Position numbers and translations under genes: made by a program
Shown: in pieces, positions 1 through 9,137 of the stretch
Numbering within the stretch: the first letter of the stretch is position 1
Layout of the letters: each line of letters starts with the position of its first letter
Origin: Candidatus Saccharimonadales bacterium
GTDB taxonomy: Bacteria; Patescibacteriota; Saccharimonadia; Saccharimonadales; UBA10212
NCBI GenBank assembly: GCA_040900055.1
Contig: JBBDZU010000007.1
Coordinates: forward strand, 169,705-233,704
DNA length: 64,000 nt
Reading direction: 5' to 3'
Notes under the pieces: generated by a model
The model's input: the letters and a program-made list of their open reading frames with translations, nothing else
Databases searched by the model: none
What the model was told of the DNA's origin: nothing

Positions 1-67
1 TAAGTTCCTTGTAACCAACTCTACGGGCTTCGGCGGAGTACGTAACTAGTCTGTGTGTGACTCTCAT
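1..67 (-). CDS. 5' end (22 codons) of an unidentified gene that runs off the window
   Basis: ATG at 67..65 opens a stop-free frame to position 1 (MRVTHRLVTYSAEARRVGYKEL). It lies 24 nt after a hairpin plus T-run. Too short to identify. Confidence 0.3.
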   Translation of the reverse strand, partial: MRVTHRLVTYSAEARRVGYKEL

Positions 68-90
68 ATACTTTCTTCTATTTTAACCTA

Positions 91-126
91 AAAGACCTCC
101 AGAGGGGGTGGGCACCGCTGGAGGCC
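91..126 (-). terminator. Intrinsic-terminator-like hairpin
   Basis: 7-bp stem cctccag(96-102)/ctggagg(118-124). On the minus strand it is followed by TCTTTT (95..91). Confidence 0.45.
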
Positions 127-440
127 TATTGCACCCTTCAACCCCACCACGGCAAGCGTCGAGATAACTGCAAGACGCAATGTTTATTCGAGCCGTCGAA
201 TTAACGACTTACGCTAAAAATTAGCGTACTGCCGACCCACATTGAATGGGAGGAGGTTAAAGGGGTTAGTATGTTTAAGAGTTTTTATGCTGTGGCTTGC
301 TAAAAAGTGGAGGGTAAACTACTTTGACAGCAAGTCATTAGCGCTCTTAAACACTCTAACTGCCCGGCATAAAGCCGGAAGTGTTAGATGGGGGATATAA
401 GGTACGTAAGATCCCTGGATAGGACTTACGAGTTGCAACT
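127..440. ncRNA. Unclassified structured RNA element (stand-alone ncRNA, or attenuator-type leader of the gene starting at 67)
   Basis: ORF-free. Nested helices are readable by eye, including closing helix 128-135/432-439 and a 9-bp long-range helix 273-281/344-352. Minus-strand promoter and terminator signals flank it. Strand is unresolved because two G-T pairs favour the plus strand. Confidence 0.45.
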
Positions 441-461
441 TTAACAAAATAATGACATAAT
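433..461 (+). promoter_or_regulatory. Sigma-70-like promoter for dprA-topA
   Basis: TTGCAA (433-438), 17-nt spacer, CATAAT (456-461); the ATG is at 486. Confidence 0.5.
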
Positions 462-466
462 GTCAA
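438..466 (-). promoter_or_regulatory. Sigma-70-like promoter firing leftward into the structured element
   Basis: Minus strand reads TTGACA (466..461), 17-nt spacer, TAAAGT (443..438). It occupies the same DNA as the dprA promoter. Confidence 0.45.
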
Positions 467-485
467 TACTTATTAATCTTTACCC

Positions 486-1352
486 ATGATTGTCAATAGC
501 CTTAAGCAAGATCACCCTGACTTTCCAAAAATCCTTTCCGAGATACCTCAGCCACCCAAGCAATTATTTTGGCAAGGAACCGAGCCAAAGGCTTGGCTCA
601 AACTACCTAAGGTTGCAGTAGTTGGCAGCCGTAAGGCCAGTAGCTATGGCTTTAGTACTACTGACAAATTAGCTAGCGAGTTGGCCGAGGCCGGCGTTGT
701 CATAATCAGTGGCCTAGCCTTTGGCATAGATGCGGCTGCTCATAAAGCAGCCCTCAAAGTTGGCGGTCACACTGTGGCAGTTTTACCCACGGCGTTACCC
801 AAAATATATCCGGCGGCGCACAGCGGCTTAGCCAGACAAATCCTCGACACAGGCGGGACTTTACTTAGCGAGTACGCTGCCAGCGACCTACCGAACGCCG
901 GTAACTTTGTGGCTCGTAACCGAATTGTCAGCGGCTTAAGCGACGGCCTGCTTATAACCGAAGCGGCCATAAATAGCGGCAGCCTGCACACCGCCCGGTT
1001 CGCCCTAGAGCAGGGTAAAACGGTCATGGCCGTGCCAGGTAATATAAATAGCCCGAGCTCTGTTGGGGCTAATAATCTGATAAAAAGCGGCGCATTACCA
1101 GTAACAGACGTTAGTGATGTCTTTTTCGCATTGAACATAAAACCCAAAGCCAAGAATAAAGTCTCACGAGTCTTTCGCGGTAGTCCCCAAGAGGAGGCGA
1201 TTTTAAAACTAATACGAGACGGCACCTCCGGTCAAGAAGAATTAGCCGTGGCCGCAGGGTTAGATGGACCGACTGTTAGCTCAGCCTTGACCATGTTAGA
1301 GATTGGCGGCTTTATTAGACCAGTCGGCAGCGGCCAGTGGCTATCTACTTAA
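486..1352 (+). CDS. dprA: DNA processing protein DprA
   Basis: 288 aa with the ISGLAFGIDAAAHKAAL Rossmann-like DprA signature. The classic dprA-topA pairing is present. Confidence 0.93.
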   Translation: MIVNSLKQDHPDFPKILSEIPQPPKQLFWQGTEPKAWLKLPKVAVVGSRKASSYGFSTTDKLASELAEAGVVIISGLAFGIDAAAHKAALKVGGHTVAVLPTALPKIYPAAHSGLARQILDTGGTLLSEYAASDLPNAGNFVARNRIVSGLSDGLLITEAAINSGSLHTARFALEQGKTVMAVPGNINSPSSVGANNLIKSGALPVTDVSDVFFALNIKPKAKNKVSRVFRGSPQEEAILKLIRDGTSGQEELAVAAGLDGPTVSSALTMLEIGGFIRPVGSGQWLST

Positions 1353-1406
1353 ATAGACTAATTTATTGCATATAAAGCAGAAGGCTTTTACACTTGTATC
1401 CATCTT

Positions 1407-3704
1407 ATGGCCAAGAACCTAGTAATTGTAGAAAGTCCTGCCAAAGCTAAAACTATCGGCCGGTTTCTAGGCAGTAACTACCAGATTAAAAGCAGCCTGG
1501 GTCACATTCGCGATCTGCCCAAACAAGACCTTGGAGTGGATATTAAAAATAAATTTATGCCAACCTACCAAGTTAGTCCCGGTAAAGAAAAAACTGCCAA
1601 AGAGCTTAAAGCAGCCGCTAAAGACAAGGCTGTATGGCTAGCCACAGATGAGGACCGGGAAGGCGAAGCCATAGCTTGGCATGTCTGTAACGTCATTGGC
1701 GCAGATCCAGCTAAGACTCATCGCATTGTATTTCACGAAATTACCGAGCCAGCCGTTAAAGCGGCTATAGCTAAACCTCGGACTATCGACATGAAGCTAG
1801 TTGACTCACAGCAAGCTCGCCGGATTTTAGACCGCCTAGTTGGCTATGAGCTAAGCCCGGTGCTTTGGAAAAAAGTCCGTACTGGGCTATCGGCTGGCCG
1901 GGTCCAAAGCGTAGCTGTTAGGTTGATTGTAGATCGTGAACGTGAAATTAAAGACTTTAAGCCGGTAGCTAGCTTTAAAGTGACGGCAGAATTTGATGCT
2001 GGCGGCCAACCTCTGCCGGCTGAGCTAGACACTAAGTTAGAAAATATTGAAGAGTCCAGACGGTTTTTGAATCAAATGCCCACGTCCCGATTTAAAGTTG
2101 CGAATATCGCCGAAAAACCAGCCAGCCGTAGCCCTAGTGCACCCTTTACTACCAGCACTCTCCAGCAGGAAGCTGCCCGCCGCCTTGGTTTTAGCGTTAA
2201 GCAAACTATGGTAACGGCTCAGCGGCTTTATGAAAACGGTCTAATAACCTACATGCGAACAGACAGCACCACGCTATCACCCCAAGCAATTGAGGCGGCT
2301 AAATCCTACATAATAATTACTTACGGTGCCAAGTACTCCTACCCCCGTCAATTTCAAACTAAAGCCAAATTAGCCCAAGAGGCCCACGAGGCAATTCGAC
2401 CAGCGAATTTATCTAAACCAACCGCTGGAGTCGACAGCGGGCAAAAAAAACTATATGAATTAATATGGCGACGGGCTATAGCTAGTCAAATGACGGCTGC
2501 CCAAATTGCTAAAACAGAAGTTTCCATAGAGATTAGCAACCAAGACCTACGGTTTATAGCCTCAGGCGAAGTTCTAGTTTTTGATGGCTTTATAAAGGTC
2601 TATGGCGGGGGAAGAGATGACCGTATCTTGCCTAAAGTCGCAGGAGGCCAAGATTTAAACTATCAAAAAATTAGCGCCACCGAAACTTATTCGCGCCCGC
2701 CAGCCCGCTATAGCGAAGCCACGCTTGTTAAAAAATTAGAGCAGCTGGGCATTGGTCGCCCCAGTACCTACTCGCCGATTATATCGACTATCCAAGACAG
2801 GGAGTACGTAGAAAAAACAGATATCGAAGGGCAAACCCGGCAGGTAAAAGAGCTTACACTGGTTGGCGACCAGCTTAAAGAACAGCAGCTGAGTGTCAAT
2901 TTTGGAGCCGACCGATCTAAGCTAATGCCCACACCACTTGGCGAGTTAGTAACTGACTTCTTGATCACCCACTTTAAGCCAATAGTCGATTATCAATTTA
3001 CAGCTTTAGCCGAAGAACAATTTGACCAAATAGCCGAAGGTAAAATTGCCTGGCAATCAGTCTTAGAAGACTTTTATAAATTCTTTCACCCTTTGATAGA
3101 AAAATCCAAGGACGTTTCACGCTTTGAAGCGGTTAAGGCTCGTGAGTTAGGTACACACCCAAAAACCGGTAAAAAAATTATCGTCCGCTACGGCCGCTAC
3201 GGCCCCGTCCTACAAATGGGGGAGGCCACCAAAGATAAAAAAGCCCCCAAGCCCCAGTTTGCCCCACTGCCTGATGGCTCAACTATTGAAGATATTGATC
3301 TTAAGCAGGCCTTGCCAATGTTTAACTTACCAAGACCTGTGGGTCAGACGGACGAAGGTACGCCGATTTTAGCTGATATTGGTCGCTTTGGTCCGTATTT
3401 AAAAGTCGGCAAGAAATCGCTAAGTATAGAAGGCAGCGACCCGCTGTCAATCTCCGAGCCGGAGGCTAAAAAACTAATAGCCGAACATGACAAGCGCCAA
3501 AAAGAAAGGGTGATTGCTGACTGGGGCACTCTGAAGATCCTGCGCGGGCCTTATGGGCCCTTTATTACGGATGGCAAGAAAAACGCTCCAGTACCCAAGT
3601 CCGAAGACCCAGAGAAGGTTAGCGAGCCTCAAGCTAAAGACATACTTCGAAATGCTCGTCCAAAACGGCATTTCAGGCGACCCAAGCGACTCCCTAAAAC
3701 GTAA
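1407..3704 (+). CDS. topA: DNA topoisomerase I
   Basis: 765 aa. TOPRIM LVIVESPAKAKTI and TDEDREGEAI; active-site context ITYMRTDS; basic C-terminal tail. Confidence 0.97.
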   Translation: MAKNLVIVESPAKAKTIGRFLGSNYQIKSSLGHIRDLPKQDLGVDIKNKFMPTYQVSPGKEKTAKELKAAAKDKAVWLATDEDREGEAIAWHVCNVIGADPAKTHRIVFHEITEPAVKAAIAKPRTIDMKLVDSQQARRILDRLVGYELSPVLWKKVRTGLSAGRVQSVAVRLIVDREREIKDFKPVASFKVTAEFDAGGQPLPAELDTKLENIEESRRFLNQMPTSRFKVANIAEKPASRSPSAPFTTSTLQQEAARRLGFSVKQTMVTAQRLYENGLITYMRTDSTTLSPQAIEAAKSYIIITYGAKYSYPRQFQTKAKLAQEAHEAIRPANLSKPTAGVDSGQKKLYELIWRRAIASQMTAAQIAKTEVSIEISNQDLRFIASGEVLVFDGFIKVYGGGRDDRILPKVAGGQDLNYQKISATETYSRPPARYSEATLVKKLEQLGIGRPSTYSPIISTIQDREYVEKTDIEGQTRQVKELTLVGDQLKEQQLSVNFGADRSKLMPTPLGELVTDFLITHFKPIVDYQFTALAEEQFDQIAEGKIAWQSVLEDFYKFFHPLIEKSKDVSRFEAVKARELGTHPKTGKKIIVRYGRYGPVLQMGEATKDKKAPKPQFAPLPDGSTIEDIDLKQALPMFNLPRPVGQTDEGTPILADIGRFGPYLKVGKKSLSIEGSDPLSISEPEAKKLIAEHDKRQKERVIADWGTLKILRGPYGPFITDGKKNAPVPKSEDPEKVSEPQAKDILRNARPKRHFRRPKRLPKT

Positions 3705-3807: not shown

Positions 3808-3856
3808 TAGGATTAGCCTCTAGCGTAATAGCGCTAGCTAACAGGGAAGAGTATAT

Positions 3857-4894
3857 ATGGATGAGGCCGCCGCTATAAGTAAATTAGACGTCAAAAAGAT
3901 TATTGACGATGTTTTGGGCACTATTGAGCGTGAGCGCGAGCAGGAAATCGTCGCCCGCCGGTTTGGCCTCTTCGACCGCCGAGAAACCTTAGAGCAAATT
4001 GGTGAGCTACTTGGCATCACCCGGGAAAGGGTACGCCAGCTGGAAAAGGTAGTAGTTAACCGCCTCAAAGCGACTGGTAAAGACTTGCCTCATATCTCTG
4101 ATTTTGAATCAGCGCTTTCTGGTCTATTAAAGGATACGGGTCATGTCGCCAAAATTAGCGATGTGACGGCCAAAGTAGCTCCCCAAAATACTAAAATTGA
4201 CCAATCCAGAGTAGCATTTTTGGCTTCTTTGAGTCCCGGCATCGCCGTAATTGAAGATAACGATCACTTCTTTCATGCGGTAGGTCTGGCTGCTAAGCAT
4301 AGCGAGAAAGCTATCCGTGAGCACGTTACAAAAATAATCGACACTATATCGGACATTGGTGAACCATCTCATATTAGTAAAGTGGCCGAAAAGTTAAGCC
4401 AACCTGACGTAGGGCATGTCGAGGCACTGGCTTCAATTTCTAAAAACTTAGCCAGCCTAAACGATCGTTGGGGTCTAGTCCGTTGGCCAATGGTTAATCC
4501 TAAAAATATTAGAGATAAAATATACGTTATTTTGCACCAGACTAAAAAGCCAATGCACTTTAGCGCAATTGCCGAGGCTATTAAAAATAGCGACTTAAAA
4601 CGCAAAGATGTCACCACCCAGGCTATACACAATGAACTTATTAAAGATTCACGCTTTGTGTTAATCGGCCGGGGAATCTACGCCTTAAAAGAATGGGGCT
4701 ACCAAAAAGGCACAGTTGCCGATGTTATCGCCGATGTTTTAGCTAAAGAGCGTGGTCCACTACATCGCGACGAAATAGTGCGAAGAGTCTTAAAGAGTCG
4801 ACGAGTCAAGGAAACAACCATTCTTCTTAACCTACAGGGCAAGCCCCAATTTAAAAGGGTTGCCAAAGCTACTTACGCCTTAGCCGAAAAATAA
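3857..4894 (+). CDS. Sigma-70 region-4-like HTH protein with a C-terminal HARE-HTH-like (RNAP delta-like) domain
   Basis: 345 aa. EREREQEIVARRFGL...TLEQIGELLGITRERVRQLEKVVVNRLK resembles sigma region 4. The C-terminal KIYVILHQTKKPMHFSAIAEAI...RFVLIGRGIYALKEWGY resembles HARE-HTH. No sigma region 2 is visible. Confidence 0.7.
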   Translation: MDEAAAISKLDVKKIIDDVLGTIEREREQEIVARRFGLFDRRETLEQIGELLGITRERVRQLEKVVVNRLKATGKDLPHISDFESALSGLLKDTGHVAKISDVTAKVAPQNTKIDQSRVAFLASLSPGIAVIEDNDHFFHAVGLAAKHSEKAIREHVTKIIDTISDIGEPSHISKVAEKLSQPDVGHVEALASISKNLASLNDRWGLVRWPMVNPKNIRDKIYVILHQTKKPMHFSAIAEAIKNSDLKRKDVTTQAIHNELIKDSRFVLIGRGIYALKEWGYQKGTVADVIADVLAKERGPLHRDEIVRRVLKSRRVKETTILLNLQGKPQFKRVAKATYALAEK

Positions 4895-4978
4895 CTCTCT
4901 TTTTTAGACTTTAAATCCAGCTAGGGTGACTCAGAAGGTGTTAATCTGATAGTCCAATGTATAATAAAATTAAAGTGT

Positions 4979-7558
4979 ATGGCGTTATTTACTAAAACCA
5001 CAAAAAAATCCCAAGAAGCGCAGGCTGACTGCTTGCTTATGCTTGAGGTGCCCAGGACCAACGATAAAAAAGAACTCGCCGCCGAGCAAATGCTAGCCGC
5101 TTTACACGGTATCCTCCGACCCAAAAGGGAGCTTCGGCTGGCAGGCCACTTACAAGAACACATTAGTCTGGAGGTAGCAGCTATTGGACAGCGCATTCGC
5201 TTCTATATTTGGACACCCAAACGCCTGCAGGCTTTTGTAGAAGGTCAGATTTATGCCCAGTATCCAACAGTCCAAATTTATGAGCAAGAAGAGGATTACA
5301 CTGAAAGAAAGCTCCACCAAACCGTTATTCACACCACTGAGCTTAATCTCATAGACGATGAGACCCTGCCAATTAAAACTTTTCCCAGTTTTGAGGTGGA
5401 CCCTTTGGCGGCTATTACAGCCACTTTGGCTAAGTTAGACAAAGAAGATGAGGAAATGTGGATCCAGATCATGGCTCGACCAATTGCCGACGACTGGCAC
5501 CGCAGGGGAGCCAAAGTGGTTAGGCGCATCCGCAGCGGCCGAAGTTTATTTGGTGGGGCTGCCACTACCTTTAGCTATGCTGCCGAAGCCTTAGCGGCCT
5601 TAGCGCGTCCGCCGACTGCTACCGAAGCTAGCGGGACAGATTTGTCCGAACGAGACAAAAGCCGCATTTCTGCTATAGAGGAAAAAAGCAATAAACTTGG
5701 CTACCAAGTTAAGATTCGTCTGCTATATGGCGGCCATGACCAGACAACAGCTCGGCTGCGCATGCAGGCCTTAGTTGGAGCCTTTAAGCAATTTAATACC
5801 ACAAACTTAAATGGTTTCACTGCAAAAACACCTAGTTTTAACAGAGATAATCAGCTGCAATTCCAGGCTCGCTTCTTTATTGATCAGGGGTTTATATTAA
5901 ACATAGAAGAGCTGGCAAGTTTGTTCCATTTACCCCACACCACAGTCGAGACACCTAACATCGTTTGGGCTACTACAAAGACCGCTGAGCCGCCTCCGAA
6001 CATACCTGTTACTACCGCAGGGCAGGAGAGCGATATCAGCTTATTTGGGGTTACCAATTTTCGTGGCGATAACACCATATTTGGTATCCGCCGCGATGAT
6101 CGTGATCGACATATTTACATACTAGGCCAAACTGGCACTGGTAAATCCGGGGCATTAGAGCTCTTAACGTTATCGGACATTTATTACGATCAAGGTTTTG
6201 CCGTTATTGATCCGCACGGCGATTATGCCCATCATGTTTTAAGCTTTATTCCCGAAAGACGCCTTGATGATGTTGTCTATTTTAATCCAGCTGACACATC
6301 TTATCCCATTGGTTTTAACCCCCTAGAAGTGACCGATCCGACTCTAAAAGGGCATATTAGCTCAGAATTAGTCGGCGTACTAAAAAGACTATTCGCGGAA
6401 AGTTGGGGCCCGAGGTTGGAGTATATTTTGCGATACACTTTGCTGGCCTTGCTTGATTACCCCAATTCGACCATGCTTGATATAACCAGGATGCTAACTG
6501 ATAAAAAGTTCCGCTCTAATGTCATAGGTTATATTGAAGACCCAGTAGTAAAAAGCTTCTGGGTTACAGAATTTGCTAGCTGGAATGATCGCTTTGCTTC
6601 CGAGGCAGTAGCCCCAGTGTTAAACAAAGTTGGTGCTTTCACTGCCAACCCTATGATCCGAAACATCATCGGTCAGCCCAAAAGTACTTTTAATCTTCGT
6701 CAAATAATGGATCAGGGTAAAATCCTTATTGTTAATTTGAGCCGTGGTTTGATGGGCGAAGATAATGCCGGAATCTTAGGCGCTATGATGGTCACTAAGA
6801 TCCAACTAGCAGCTATGGGACGAGCCGACATGCCAGAAGAGCAGCGCAAGAAATTTTATCTTTATGTTGACGAGTTCCAGAACTTTGCAACTGATTCGTT
6901 TGCCACCATACTGTCGGAGGCTCGTAAATATGCCCTAAACTTAACCGTAGCCAACCAATATATCTCCCAGATGAGTGAAGCAGTTCGGGATGCTGTCTTT
7001 GGCAACGTGGGAACTATAGTCTGCTTTCGGATTAGCCCAGACGATTCGCCGTTTTTACAAAAATATTTCGAGCCTCAATTTGAGGCTGGCGACTTAATAC
7101 AACAACATTCCCGCTTTTTTGTCGTGACAATGATGATAAATGACGAGAAGGCTCCGGCTTTTTCGGCTAAAACCCTCAATATACCGCCAGCTCCCGCTGA
7201 TCTAACTTCCAGGATTATTGAACTGTCGCGCCAGCGGTACACCCAGGAGCGCCCGGTAGTTGAAGATATGATCCGCGTGTCAGCCGGCTTAGAGAGCCAT
7301 GGTGTTCCGCCAATTAATCCTCAGACTCACAAAATAGAGCCTAAACCTACTAGTATCGTTGCTACACCTCCCGAGCATATCGGTAAGGTTGCCACTACAC
7401 CGATTGTCGGCAGCGAATCAACTACCAGCCGTTCTACCAAAAGACGACGTGGACGGAGGGGGCGAGGGGGGCCGGCTAAGAGTCCTTCAACCAGTAACGC
7501 AGGCCCGCCTAAGGCATCGCCGGCCGAGGCCCAGGAACACACTGTACGTTTACGTTAG
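4979..7558 (+). CDS. TraD/VirD4/TraG-like P-loop ATPase (coupling-protein family) with a large uncharacterised N-terminal domain
   Basis: 859 aa. Walker A ILGQTGTGKSG, Walker B-like FYLYVDEFQNFAT, LSEARKYALNLTVANQ. Arg/Gly-rich tail KRRRGRRGRGG. Confidence 0.75.
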   Translation: MALFTKTTKKSQEAQADCLLMLEVPRTNDKKELAAEQMLAALHGILRPKRELRLAGHLQEHISLEVAAIGQRIRFYIWTPKRLQAFVEGQIYAQYPTVQIYEQEEDYTERKLHQTVIHTTELNLIDDETLPIKTFPSFEVDPLAAITATLAKLDKEDEEMWIQIMARPIADDWHRRGAKVVRRIRSGRSLFGGAATTFSYAAEALAALARPPTATEASGTDLSERDKSRISAIEEKSNKLGYQVKIRLLYGGHDQTTARLRMQALVGAFKQFNTTNLNGFTAKTPSFNRDNQLQFQARFFIDQGFILNIEELASLFHLPHTTVETPNIVWATTKTAEPPPNIPVTTAGQESDISLFGVTNFRGDNTIFGIRRDDRDRHIYILGQTGTGKSGALELLTLSDIYYDQGFAVIDPHGDYAHHVLSFIPERRLDDVVYFNPADTSYPIGFNPLEVTDPTLKGHISSELVGVLKRLFAESWGPRLEYILRYTLLALLDYPNSTMLDITRMLTDKKFRSNVIGYIEDPVVKSFWVTEFASWNDRFASEAVAPVLNKVGAFTANPMIRNIIGQPKSTFNLRQIMDQGKILIVNLSRGLMGEDNAGILGAMMVTKIQLAAMGRADMPEEQRKKFYLYVDEFQNFATDSFATILSEARKYALNLTVANQYISQMSEAVRDAVFGNVGTIVCFRISPDDSPFLQKYFEPQFEAGDLIQQHSRFFVVTMMINDEKAPAFSAKTLNIPPAPADLTSRIIELSRQRYTQERPVVEDMIRVSAGLESHGVPPINPQTHKIEPKPTSIVATPPEHIGKVATTPIVGSESTTSRSTKRRRGRRGRGGPAKSPSTSNAGPPKASPAEAQEHTVRLR

Positions 7559-7767: not shown

Positions 7768-8273
7768 TTACATAATCTAAGAGACAAATATGTATATAAG
7801 CCCTTCTAACAGGGGACTTGTATTATTTAGCGCCTCGTAATTATCGTATGTCCGCTTCTGCACTCTAGTTGCTTCTAAGCTCTCAAGCTTAATGGTCTGC
7901 TGTAGTCTTTACCTAAACTTATCCACAGCCATTAGTTATATATTTGATTTTTCTATATTTCATATCTTTATATGTTATTCGATTTTTTCTCGACATTTAC
8001 TAATATTTGACATTCTAAATAATCATATTATGCTTATGCTTTCCCCTGCTTGAAGACTAACACAAATTTTGAACAAAATACGAACTAAGAGAGTAGAGAG
8101 TCATTAGGCATCTCTTCCAGATACTAAGCGATAACCGCTTCTCATAACATAATTACAGCTGACCTAAAACCCCGCCTTTGAAATATGGCACTCCTTCCCT
8201 TCCCCTGTCGTCGTCCTCGTTAAAGTTATAGCTATCTCTACCATAGTCAGAAAACTTGCACCTTAATTAACGG

Positions 8274-9137
8274 TCATCTATAGAAGATCTTGCCGCTAAC
8301 TCGTACATCCAAGTATAGTTCCGGATTTATATTAGCTGCTGTAAAATGCTCACGAGCAGCCAAGAACTGACCGATTTGCGAGCGGGCATCGCCAGCTAAA
8401 TTAAACTTAATAAAATAAGGCTTATCTGTCGTTCTTAAGTTAAGTTCGTGTGGTCTGGGCGGTAGAGTTAGAGATTTTATGGGGGCCCCTGCCTTTTTAG
8501 ATTGGTTAACTACAGCCTTAATAAAATCAACAGCTGATTTGCTCATGGCCTTTTGATCTTTTTTAAGCTCAAACCCGCTTTGATCATCAATTACTGTCAG
8601 CCCACTTATCTTAGGTAGCTCCTGCTTTAGCGCGACTGTTCGACCCATGGCATCAACAATGTAAGTCGAGGTATTGCTGGTTACAAAAAAGGTCGGTGCA
8701 GCAATATCAAGCTTAACGGTTGGCCGCTGGCTTATGGGCGACAAATGCAAGGAAGCGGTAGTAATTTCCGGGAACTTCTTTTTTAAAGAGTCTGCTACTT
8801 TAGCTTCGTCTAAGGTCACCTTGTTTCGATTCTTTAGTTTTTTTAAGTAGGCTTCGGCGGCTTTTTGGTAGGTAGCTTGGCTGTTGTAGGACAGATCGCT
8901 GACTTGCATATGAGGCCGAGGCTTAAGACTTAATATATATACCAAGCCGTAAATAACCAGACCAATTAACATTAAGTCTAATAATCTTGATAACACCGGT
9001 CGCTTTTTTTTGAGTTTGGGTTTTGGCTTAAAGGGGCTGGGGGCAGGTTTAATATCGCCCTTATAATACTTGGTGGCGGGTACCCGGCCGGTTGGCTGTC
9101 GGACTCTAAGGCGAGAATGAGGCCGGGCCACTACCAC
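8274..9137 (-). CDS. FtsQ/DivIB-like cell division protein
   Basis: 287 aa. Basic N-terminus, one TM helix (LMLIGLVIYGLVYILSL), POTRA-like region. It sits directly after murG at the end of the dcw cluster. Confidence 0.6.
   Translation of the reverse strand: MVVARPHSRLRVRQPTGRVPATKYYKGDIKPAPSPFKPKPKLKKKRPVLSRLLDLMLIGLVIYGLVYILSLKPRPHMQVSDLSYNSQATYQKAAEAYLKKLKNRNKVTLDEAKVADSLKKKFPEITTASLHLSPISQRPTVKLDIAAPTFFVTSNTSTYIVDAMGRTVALKQELPKISGLTVIDDQSGFELKKDQKAMSKSAVDFIKAVVNQSKKAGAPIKSLTLPPRPHELNLRTTDKPYFIKFNLAGDARSQIGQFLAAREHFTAANINPELYLDVRVSGKIFYR

Follow-up and report, generated by a model that had tools for sequence, protein, structure and literature searches.

What occupies the long spacer upstream of dprA in a Saccharibacteria genome, a leader for a neighbouring gene or a gene in its own right? 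The question arises at one end of a 64,000-nt stretch of DNA (hereafter the window) from a Candidatus Saccharimonadales bacterium (assembly GCA_040900055.1, contig JBBDZU010000007.1, positions 169,705 to 233,704), in which positions 1-485 form the spacer between a minus-strand gene with its ATG at 67 and dprA (486-1352, plus strand), which topA follows. A first-pass annotation made from the letters alone had placed this ATG and dprA correctly and described, between them, a densely folded element, taken for either an undescribed RNA or an attenuation-type leader of the gene at 67. The analysis reported here favours a separate gene: positions 90-431 of the minus strand would encode a stand-alone structured non-coding RNA of about 340 nt whose family is not in Rfam 15, a reading to which we assign a probability of roughly 0.8. 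That the feature is a structured minus-strand RNA is very likely. That its class is undescribed is likely, and is supported by a covarying fold, a promoter and terminator of its own, and the lack of any match in Rfam 15 or by ARAGORN.

Transcription signals and strand of the element

No open reading frame (ORF) of 60 or more codons lies wholly within the spacer, the longest being 52, 42, 36 and 30 amino acids (aa), and the dense folding of the region described earlier is borne out by comparison with dinucleotide shuffles: the fold of 68-485 gives z = -6.3 on the plus and -6.7 on the minus strand, with none of 100 shuffles reaching its stability. The window holds a single copy of the RNA. An identical contig from a public run (L001) supplies the wider gene order, namely der, pth, a 259-aa minus-strand protein without Pfam domains, the spacer, dprA, topA and a sigma factor, and thereby identifies what continues to the left of position 1 as the 259-aa protein gene, then pth and der. 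The genes der, pth, dprA and topA all lie on the plus strand, and the RNA gene is opposite to them.

Relatives were assembled in two ways. A DprA protein search with one genome per species yielded 41 loci, about 30 of them from Saccharibacteria (metagenome-assembled genomes, MAGs, of Saccharimonadales type), and spacer-like DNA lies directly upstream of dprA in all of these approximately 30. The DprA proteins of these species are only 49-63% identical to that of the window; the 3'-terminal 80 nt of the element are 85-92% identical across the DprA-found relatives. Detailed counts refer to 28 Saccharibacteria loci of this set. In addition, metagenome contigs were scanned with the RNA's own pattern (TGAAGGGTG, a gap of 14-44, GGTGCCCACCCCCTC), which returned at least 120 loci, and the family, which is conserved across environmental Saccharibacteria in well over 100 genomes, now comprises more than 140 sequences. 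The covariance model of the 3' domain (R1, see below) found no match in nine dprA loci from outside the Saccharibacteria.

The minus-strand promoter TTGACA-17-TAAAGT (466..438), already recognized in the first-pass annotation, matches the consensus at 10 of 12 positions and carries an upstream TG. A promoter of the type TTGAC(A/T)-17-TGnTAAAAT precedes the RNA in all 28 DprA-found loci: 24 of them have the 17-nt spacer, 27 have TGn and 23 have TAAAAT as the -10 hexamer. The whole promoter pattern is matched in 76 of 120 loci among the metagenome matches listed. The element thus has the -35 and -10 hexamers, conserved in relatives, that are expected 16-18 nt apart in an independent sigma-70 transcription unit. 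At the other end, a G+C-rich stem followed by UUUU (127-90), previously noted as a hairpin plus U-run, has the make-up of an intrinsic (Rho-independent) terminator. Nine pairs of its stem show double-sided changes in the MAFFT-based alignment of the 28 DprA-found loci, the U-run follows in 27 of them, and the loop of 15-16 nt, CGGUGCCCACCCCCU(C), is invariant in 27. Judged from the -10 box, the RNA would start at about 431 (+/- 3), and from the U-run it would end at about 90.

The strand follows from the non-canonical pairs. Read as minus-strand RNA, the helices of the final model contain 529 G·U or U·G cells as against 55 A·C or C·A cells, which indicates transcription from the minus strand; the G-T pairs formerly held to argue for the plus strand mislead at the level of the family. 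A plus-strand element, that is, a pth-dprA intercistronic region or a structured 5' untranslated region of dprA, would agree with the orientation of der, pth, dprA and topA, and in fold stability the two strands are about equal. Besides the wobble pairs, it faces a promoter and a terminator with U-run that are conserved on the minus strand only, and among the metagenome matches listed dprA is absent and the RNA directly beside topA in 20 of the 57 loci showing the topA start. We regard a plus-strand element as barely credible.

Secondary structure and covariation

When the 28 relatives were folded one by one by minimum free energy, most of them arrived at a common architecture. Long-range helices close the two domains of the RNA (P3 the 5' domain, Pc the 3' domain), and the layout is branched, with 15 or more helices and a core that carries hairpins differing in length between species. 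When whole domains were aligned with MAFFT and folded with RNAalifold, only P3, Pc and the terminator were recovered. Since the variable hairpins misalign in MAFFT, two single-sequence covariance models were built from the window's own fold, R1 for positions 86-272 and R2 for 262-437, and 94 non-redundant relatives were aligned to both. In the 3' domain (R1), 95.0% of cells are paired, compared with 71.1% in shuffles and 39-55% when the partner strand is slid, and double-sided changes occur in 55 of 56 pairs; the 5' domain (R2) has 93.7% of cells paired, compared with 77.5% and 33-51%, and double-sided changes in 44 of 48 pairs. Taken together, 99 of the 104 modelled pairs show double-sided changes, so that compensatory change exceeds the controls as expected of a structured RNA. 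In about 30 rows of the 3'-domain alignment an extra hairpin splits the match and leaves it incomplete, and Pc was for this reason judged on full-length rows and on the MAFFT-based alignment. Watson-Crick covariation was also sought column by column without a model, among the columns filled in at least 85% of sequences, and the top ranks went to pairs of P1, P3 and the terminator.

P3 is a helix of 16-17 bp that encloses P4 and an optional long arm, P5, and is the 5'-domain helix that RNAalifold also recovers. Its outer part has a competitor, in that GUUAG (356-360) can pair either with CUAAC (383-387) or with the 3' strand of P3; the P2 hairpin between these flanks differs in length among relatives. 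The loop of P4, UACCCUCCAC, is exact in 88 of 95 non-redundant sequences and has at most one mismatch in 94. In the 3' domain, Pc is closed by a C-G pair in 22 of the 28 relatives, by G-C in three and by A-U in three, and its G·U pair becomes A-U where the sequence changes. Within Pc lie the optional hairpin Hb and a three-way junction (Pm, Hc, Hd, He) whose helices are 83-95% paired with double-sided changes in every pair, the same layout appearing in most of the 28 minimum free energy folds. A further optional hairpin may stand between Pc and the terminator. The coordinates of all these features are given in Table 1.

About half of the helices drawn in the first-pass annotation survive this comparison. 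Conserved and covarying are 405-410/425-430 (now P1), 273-281/344-352 (the inner part of P3), 294-301/329-336, 210-217/221-228, the terminator stem and, from the helix drawn at 304-310/319-325, the pairs 304-308/321-325. Four helices are not conserved. The closing helix (128-135/432-439) draws on bases that lie at the predicted start or upstream of it, and where the window has C132 nearly all relatives have U; the register of aacccc/ggggtt (140-145/262-267) is wrong, the covarying helix being 134-142/256-264; and gcgtc/gacgc and attcga/tcgaat are not kept, reaching, together with aacccc/ggggtt, 67.8% paired against 65.6% in shuffles. The helix ctaac/gttag (356-360/383-387) is 86% paired and conserved in sequence, shows no covariation, and is in competition with the five outer pairs of P3, which do covary. 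In sum, the spacers upstream of dprA in relatives do hold conserved, covarying helices, in an arrangement that differs in part from the one first drawn.

The P5 arm, which many relatives have (L007, L010 and L013, for example) and which is absent from the window, contains a conserved sub-motif, UUAGUAUA...GCAAUUGCUUAAGCUAA. Within this arm GCAAUUGC is a perfect palindrome, which, from its sequence, could mediate dimerisation.

Table 1. Features of the RNA gene and its surroundings, in window coordinates
Feature	Position	Strand	Remarks
-35 box of the RNA promoter, TTGACA	461..466	-	TTGAC(A/T) in 28/28 DprA-found loci
Extended -10 box, TGn + TAAAGT	438..446	-	17 nt past the -35 box; TAAAAT in most relatives
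Predicted RNA, ~340 nt	90..431	-	ends placed by prediction; family members roughly 300-560 nt
P1, 5'-terminal hairpin CGUAAG.../...CUUACG	405..430	-	10 pairs, 9 with double-sided changes; 90% paired
Unpaired linker UACCUUAUAUCCCCCA (family consensus ACCUUAUACCCCC)	389..404	-	sequence conserved in relatives
P2 region, variable hairpin CCGGC/GCCGG (364-378)	356..387	-	flanks CUAAC (383-387) and GUUAG (356-360)
P3, 5' strand GUUAGAGUGUUUAAGAG	344..360	-	16 pairs, all with double-sided changes; 96.7% paired
P3, 3' strand CUCUUAAACAUACUAAC	266..282	-	same helix evidence as 5' strand
P4 arm, hairpin loop (309-320) with near-invariant UACCCUCCAC	289..342	-	several covarying helices
Pc, 5' strand CCCUUUAAC	256..264	-	9-bp long-range helix closing the 3' domain
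Pc, 3' strand GUUGAAGGG	134..142	-	within invariant G-rich segment GGUGGGGUUGAAGGGUG (131-149)
Hb hairpin CCCAU/GUGGG with conserved UCAAUGUGGGU	236..250	-	92.9% paired
Three-way junction closed by Pm (230-234/150-154)	150..234	-	arms Hc 210-228, Hd 195-208, He 155-194
Terminator hairpin, loop CGGUGCCCACCCCCU (103-117), U-run 90-93	93..127	-	10-bp covarying stem, 15-nt loop; 99.3% paired
dprA promoter-like sites	433..477	+	TTGCAA-17-CATAAT at 433-461; TATTAAT at 471-477, 9 nt before ATG

Known RNA families and neighbouring genes

The RNA was compared with described families by several routes. At gathering score, Rfam 15 returned nothing at all in the whole 64-kb window and no match to the RNA in 17 relatives. 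With E-values up to 10, window positions 1-600 gave only a chance match to the small RNA NsiR4, and the same mode applied to three relatives gave only chance matches to two microRNA precursor families, so that the Rfam check called for at the outset yielded no confident match. ARAGORN, which also detects permuted transfer-messenger RNA (tmRNA), reported neither tRNA nor tmRNA. None of the covariance models of OLE, ROOL, GOLLD, raiA, HEARO, 6C, RsaE/RoxS and RNAIII gave a match, and the literature on non-coding RNAs of Saccharibacteria, Patescibacteria and the Candidate Phyla Radiation (CPR) that was searched contains no description of such an RNA. By the tests applied it belongs to no described family, and as a family it probably represents a new class.

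A highly divergent housekeeping RNA that escapes the standard models (RNase P RNA, tmRNA, 6S RNA or signal recognition particle (SRP) RNA) has to be considered here. The new RNA resembles RNase P RNA, tmRNA and 6S RNA in size range (about 300-560 nt), in its strong promoter of constitutive type, in being single-copy with fixed synteny, and in its retention in a minimal genome, and searches of the 64-kb window and of 145 kb from relatives turned up none of the four. The details point elsewhere. The 5' and 3' ends, which pair with each other in all four families, form local covarying hairpins here (P1 and the terminator) and are not joined. RNase P RNA was not matched at gathering score or at E up to 5-10; in bacteria it contains the P4 pseudoknot built from the CR-I and CR-V motifs, and both motifs (GGAAAGUCC and ACAGAA..GGCUUA) are absent from the family alignments. 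ARAGORN, Rfam and the comparison of ORFs revealed no T-arm, CCA end or tag reading frame of a tmRNA, inspection of the alignments showed neither the GGAA/AGCA motif nor the centrally bubbled rod of SRP RNA, and the single long rod of about 150-200 nt with a central bubble that characterizes 6S RNA was not seen and has no Rfam match. A divergent member of one of these four families is therefore, given the lack of any match even at E up to 10, very unlikely.

The position of the RNA gene is fixed in the family, between pth and dprA or topA and in an orientation opposite to both. Metagenome loci with long enough flanks show the order der, pth, RNA (opposite strand), dprA, topA; in the DprA-found genomes the left neighbour is mostly the plus-strand pth, ending right at the element. 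Among the metagenome matches listed, pth is convergent to the RNA in 87 of 88 loci, and the distance from its stop codon to the terminator loop is at most 80 nt in 31 of the 88, 81-300 nt in 12 and more than 300 nt in 45, the gap between pth and the RNA reaching 2.9 kb. The convergent pth, together with the loci without dprA, shows that neither dprA nor any downstream gene is a fixed companion of the RNA.

These data bear directly on the attenuation leader, or riboswitch, proposed for the gene at 67. Within the window alone a promoter leads into a long structured RNA and a terminator, and an ATG comes about 22 nt later, which is the order found in T-box and other attenuation leaders; a homologue of the 259-aa protein follows the RNA in L014, ORFs of about 95 aa follow it in L003, L010, L021 and L031, and read-through could feed inserted genes in some genomes. 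As a role for the family this is not supported, in view of the convergent pth and of the 31 loci that leave no room for a downstream gene. No downstream gene is conserved, the content being variable and non-homologous between genomes; the T-box sequence and specifier architecture are missing, and covariance models of the T-box and known riboswitches give no match; and the gene at 67 comes with a TAAAAT box of its own (85-80), placed 12 nt ahead of the start codon, like other genes of this genome. We consider a leader function exceedingly unlikely. A conserved protein partner encoded next door was also considered and rejected, the ORFs between the RNA and pth being variable: the 259-aa family was seen only in the window/L001 and L014 among the relatives examined (two loci), and the unrelated family of about 95 aa in the four loci named above.

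On the other flank, the dprA promoter-like sites and the RNA promoter overlap back-to-back, with predicted start sites about 50 bp apart. The two units may consequently compete or exclude each other, and competition of the RNA promoter with that of dprA is a likely local side effect; which of the sites would serve dprA is a matter of prediction. This could be the main function, the RNA promoter occluding the dprA promoter and the transcript being a by-product or an antisense brake on competence, and the overlap within 433-477 and the conserved placement beside dprA in most loci would suit such an arrangement. It leaves 100 covarying base pairs and the invariant loops unexplained, and the RNA is kept with the same promoter where topA, not dprA, is the divergent neighbour; local regulation of dprA as the main role of the RNA is thus very unlikely. 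The link with dprA is one of synteny and an overlapping divergent promoter, not of dependence.

Several further observations concern the surroundings of the RNA gene. The interval between its 3' end and pth (in the window, 1-90 and leftwards) is a variable insertion spot with non-homologous ORFs and recalls the way in which the 3' ends of tRNA and tmRNA genes act as hot spots for integration. In L132 (minus strand) the terminator hairpin occurs twice, at about 909 and 1638, with the same stem and loop, about 730 nt apart and in direct orientation, which from the sequence looks like an att-type duplication of the RNA 3' end. A 4.3-kb contig, L113 (Ga0137414_1190104), holds two complete copies in inverted orientation, at 984-1377 (minus) and 2907-3303 (plus), representing either a real inverted duplication or an assembly chimera. 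IMG/VR contains one match, the phage-like contig L163 (IMGVR_UViG_3300049064_000004), in which a full-length RNA at about 7972-8368, at the contig end, adjoins RecT-like and FtsK-like genes (3814-6670), with dprA, topA and pth not nearby. A phage origin was rejected, this single copy being most simply the host flank of a prophage. The same contig has another hairpin at 6856-6886, about 1.1 kb from the RNA and on the other strand; its loop is identical (CGGUGCCCACCCCCU), but its stem (GACGUG/CACGUC) differs. In a Patescibacteria MAG (L020), a cyclic-di-GMP-II riboswitch (1066-1148, plus strand; 54 bits, gathering score 53.5) lies about 2.4 kb from the RNA. Two MAGs labelled Limnocylindria/Limnocylindrales (Chloroflexota; L023, L028) carry a Saccharibacteria-type dprA and RNA locus on contigs that are probably mis-binned.

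Invariant loops and possible function

A small protein or dual-function RNA was rejected, the longest ORFs differing in strand, position and start codon among 95 sequences. No conserved ORF was found in these on either strand, and the most conserved block contains one-nucleotide indels, which speaks against coding. What is conserved instead lies in loops and junctions: three C-rich elements are invariant (ACCCCCA in the linker, CCCUCC in the P4 loop, CCCACCCCC in the terminator loop), and so are the G-rich elements GGUGGGG...GGGUG and GUGGGU. The two sets are complementary, junction GGUGGG to CCCACC of the terminator loop and GUGGG to CCCAC.

Loops of this kind are known from trans-acting regulators. 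In RNAIII of S. aureus, RsaE/RoxS of Firmicutes and the actinobacterial 6C RNA, C-rich loops pair with G-rich sites in mRNAs; in RNAIII one loop so used is that of the terminator hairpin, and long-range helices close the domains. The RNA described here shares with them C-rich single-stranded elements in hairpin loops (P4 loop UACCCUCCAC, terminator loop GCCCACCCCCU), a likeness that is one of resemblance only, and has its own promoter and terminator; with RNAIII it also shares domains closed by long-range helices. Its elements CCCUCC, CCCCC and CCCACCCCC, one in the linker and two in hairpin loops, might act on G-rich mRNA sites such as Shine-Dalgarno (SD) regions, and the second hairpin of L163, with an identical loop on another stem, suggests that the terminator loop is a recognition module, whether for mRNA or for protein. 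The differences are considerable. The RNA is class-wide, with far more invariant positions, encodes no peptide, and matches none of these models. Across the window and 680 kb of neighbouring DNA, complements of the invariant loops occur as often as expected by chance and at no fixed position, so that targets were not found there. SD targeting would have few substrates, 45 of the 50 ATG-initiated ORFs of at least 150 aa in the window having no SD-like motif. In many genes of the window, moreover, the ATG comes 7-12 nt after the end of a TATAAT-like box; the two features together suggest leaderless or near-leaderless mRNAs, on which this genome appears largely to rely. Finally, the RNA's own invariant G-rich strands complement its C-rich loops. 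A regulator that pairs in trans through these loops is in our judgement rather unlikely.

The reading that we prefer for the loops is an intramolecular one. The near-consensus sigma-70 promoter with its extended -10 element would drive the RNA and the intrinsic terminator would end it; it would probably be expressed constitutively at a high level and act in trans. Its invariant C-rich loops might dock on the invariant G-rich junction strands (CCCACC with GGUGGG, for example), a suggestion that we make tentatively, and docking would yield a compact particle serving as the scaffold of a housekeeping ribonucleoprotein (RNP) or as a catalyst, not as a cis-acting leader. Docking is rated slightly above base-pairing in trans because both partners are invariant, because the RNA is kept in a minimal genome, and because the arms vary around a fixed core. 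Freely varying peripheral arms around a fixed core are also seen in RNase P and OLE-type RNAs. A still more speculative extension would make it a large, "ornate" RNA that is universal in the Saccharimonadia and abundant, with a ribozyme or an essential RNP rather than an antisense function at its core, and hence a housekeeping RNA peculiar to an ultrasmall, epibiotic lineage of the CPR.

Several points weigh against these proposals or limit the evidence for them. Docking between loop and junction has no support from covariation: the column scan found no covarying pairs between the 5' and 3' domains, and mutual information computed across anchored motif blocks and both covariance-model alignments brought out no tertiary or pseudoknot pairs, the anchored-block scan being dominated by terminator pairs and the noise of one poorly anchored block and the cross-alignment scan being topped by helices already modelled. 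The candidate partners never vary, which makes such a scan powerless. The covariance-model alignments were fitted to the structure being tested, and the percentages of paired cells are inflated accordingly; the slid and shuffled controls and the MAFFT-based result offset this bias only in part. The metagenome set was selected through two of the "invariant" motifs, so that invariance is an unbiased measure only in the 28 DprA-found loci. The start and end of the RNA are predictions from sequence signals, and canonical rnpB, ssrA, ffs and ssrS were checked only in the 64-kb window and 145 kb of relatives.

The closest parallels are the large RNAs OLE, ROOL, GOLLD and raiA. Like them, the RNA is encoded by a gene of its own that runs to hundreds of nucleotides. 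It folds into several domains with long-range helices, has highly conserved nucleotides at its junctions and in its loops, bears peripheral hairpins whose length varies, and is confined to a single lineage. The raiA RNA is often found beside the competence gene comFC, and here the neighbour is dprA. The new RNA differs from all four in matching no Rfam model, in its host (Saccharibacteria/CPR), in its conserved motifs, and in that the terminator loop is itself an invariant element.

Large structured bacterial RNAs of this kind are, to our knowledge, rare, and each has opened new biology; in the literature searched, no large structured orphan RNA has been described from the CPR. Saccharibacteria have some of the smallest cellular genomes and have shed most regulatory baggage. 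Every member examined nevertheless keeps an RNA gene of 300-560 nt with a near-perfect promoter and dozens of invariant nucleotides. For the annotation of these genomes, what passed for "400 nt of non-coding DNA" becomes a gene opposite in strand to all its neighbours. With more than 140 sequences, a structure supported by covariation and predicted ends, the family is directly testable in those cultivable, genetically tractable Saccharibacteria that carry the RNA.

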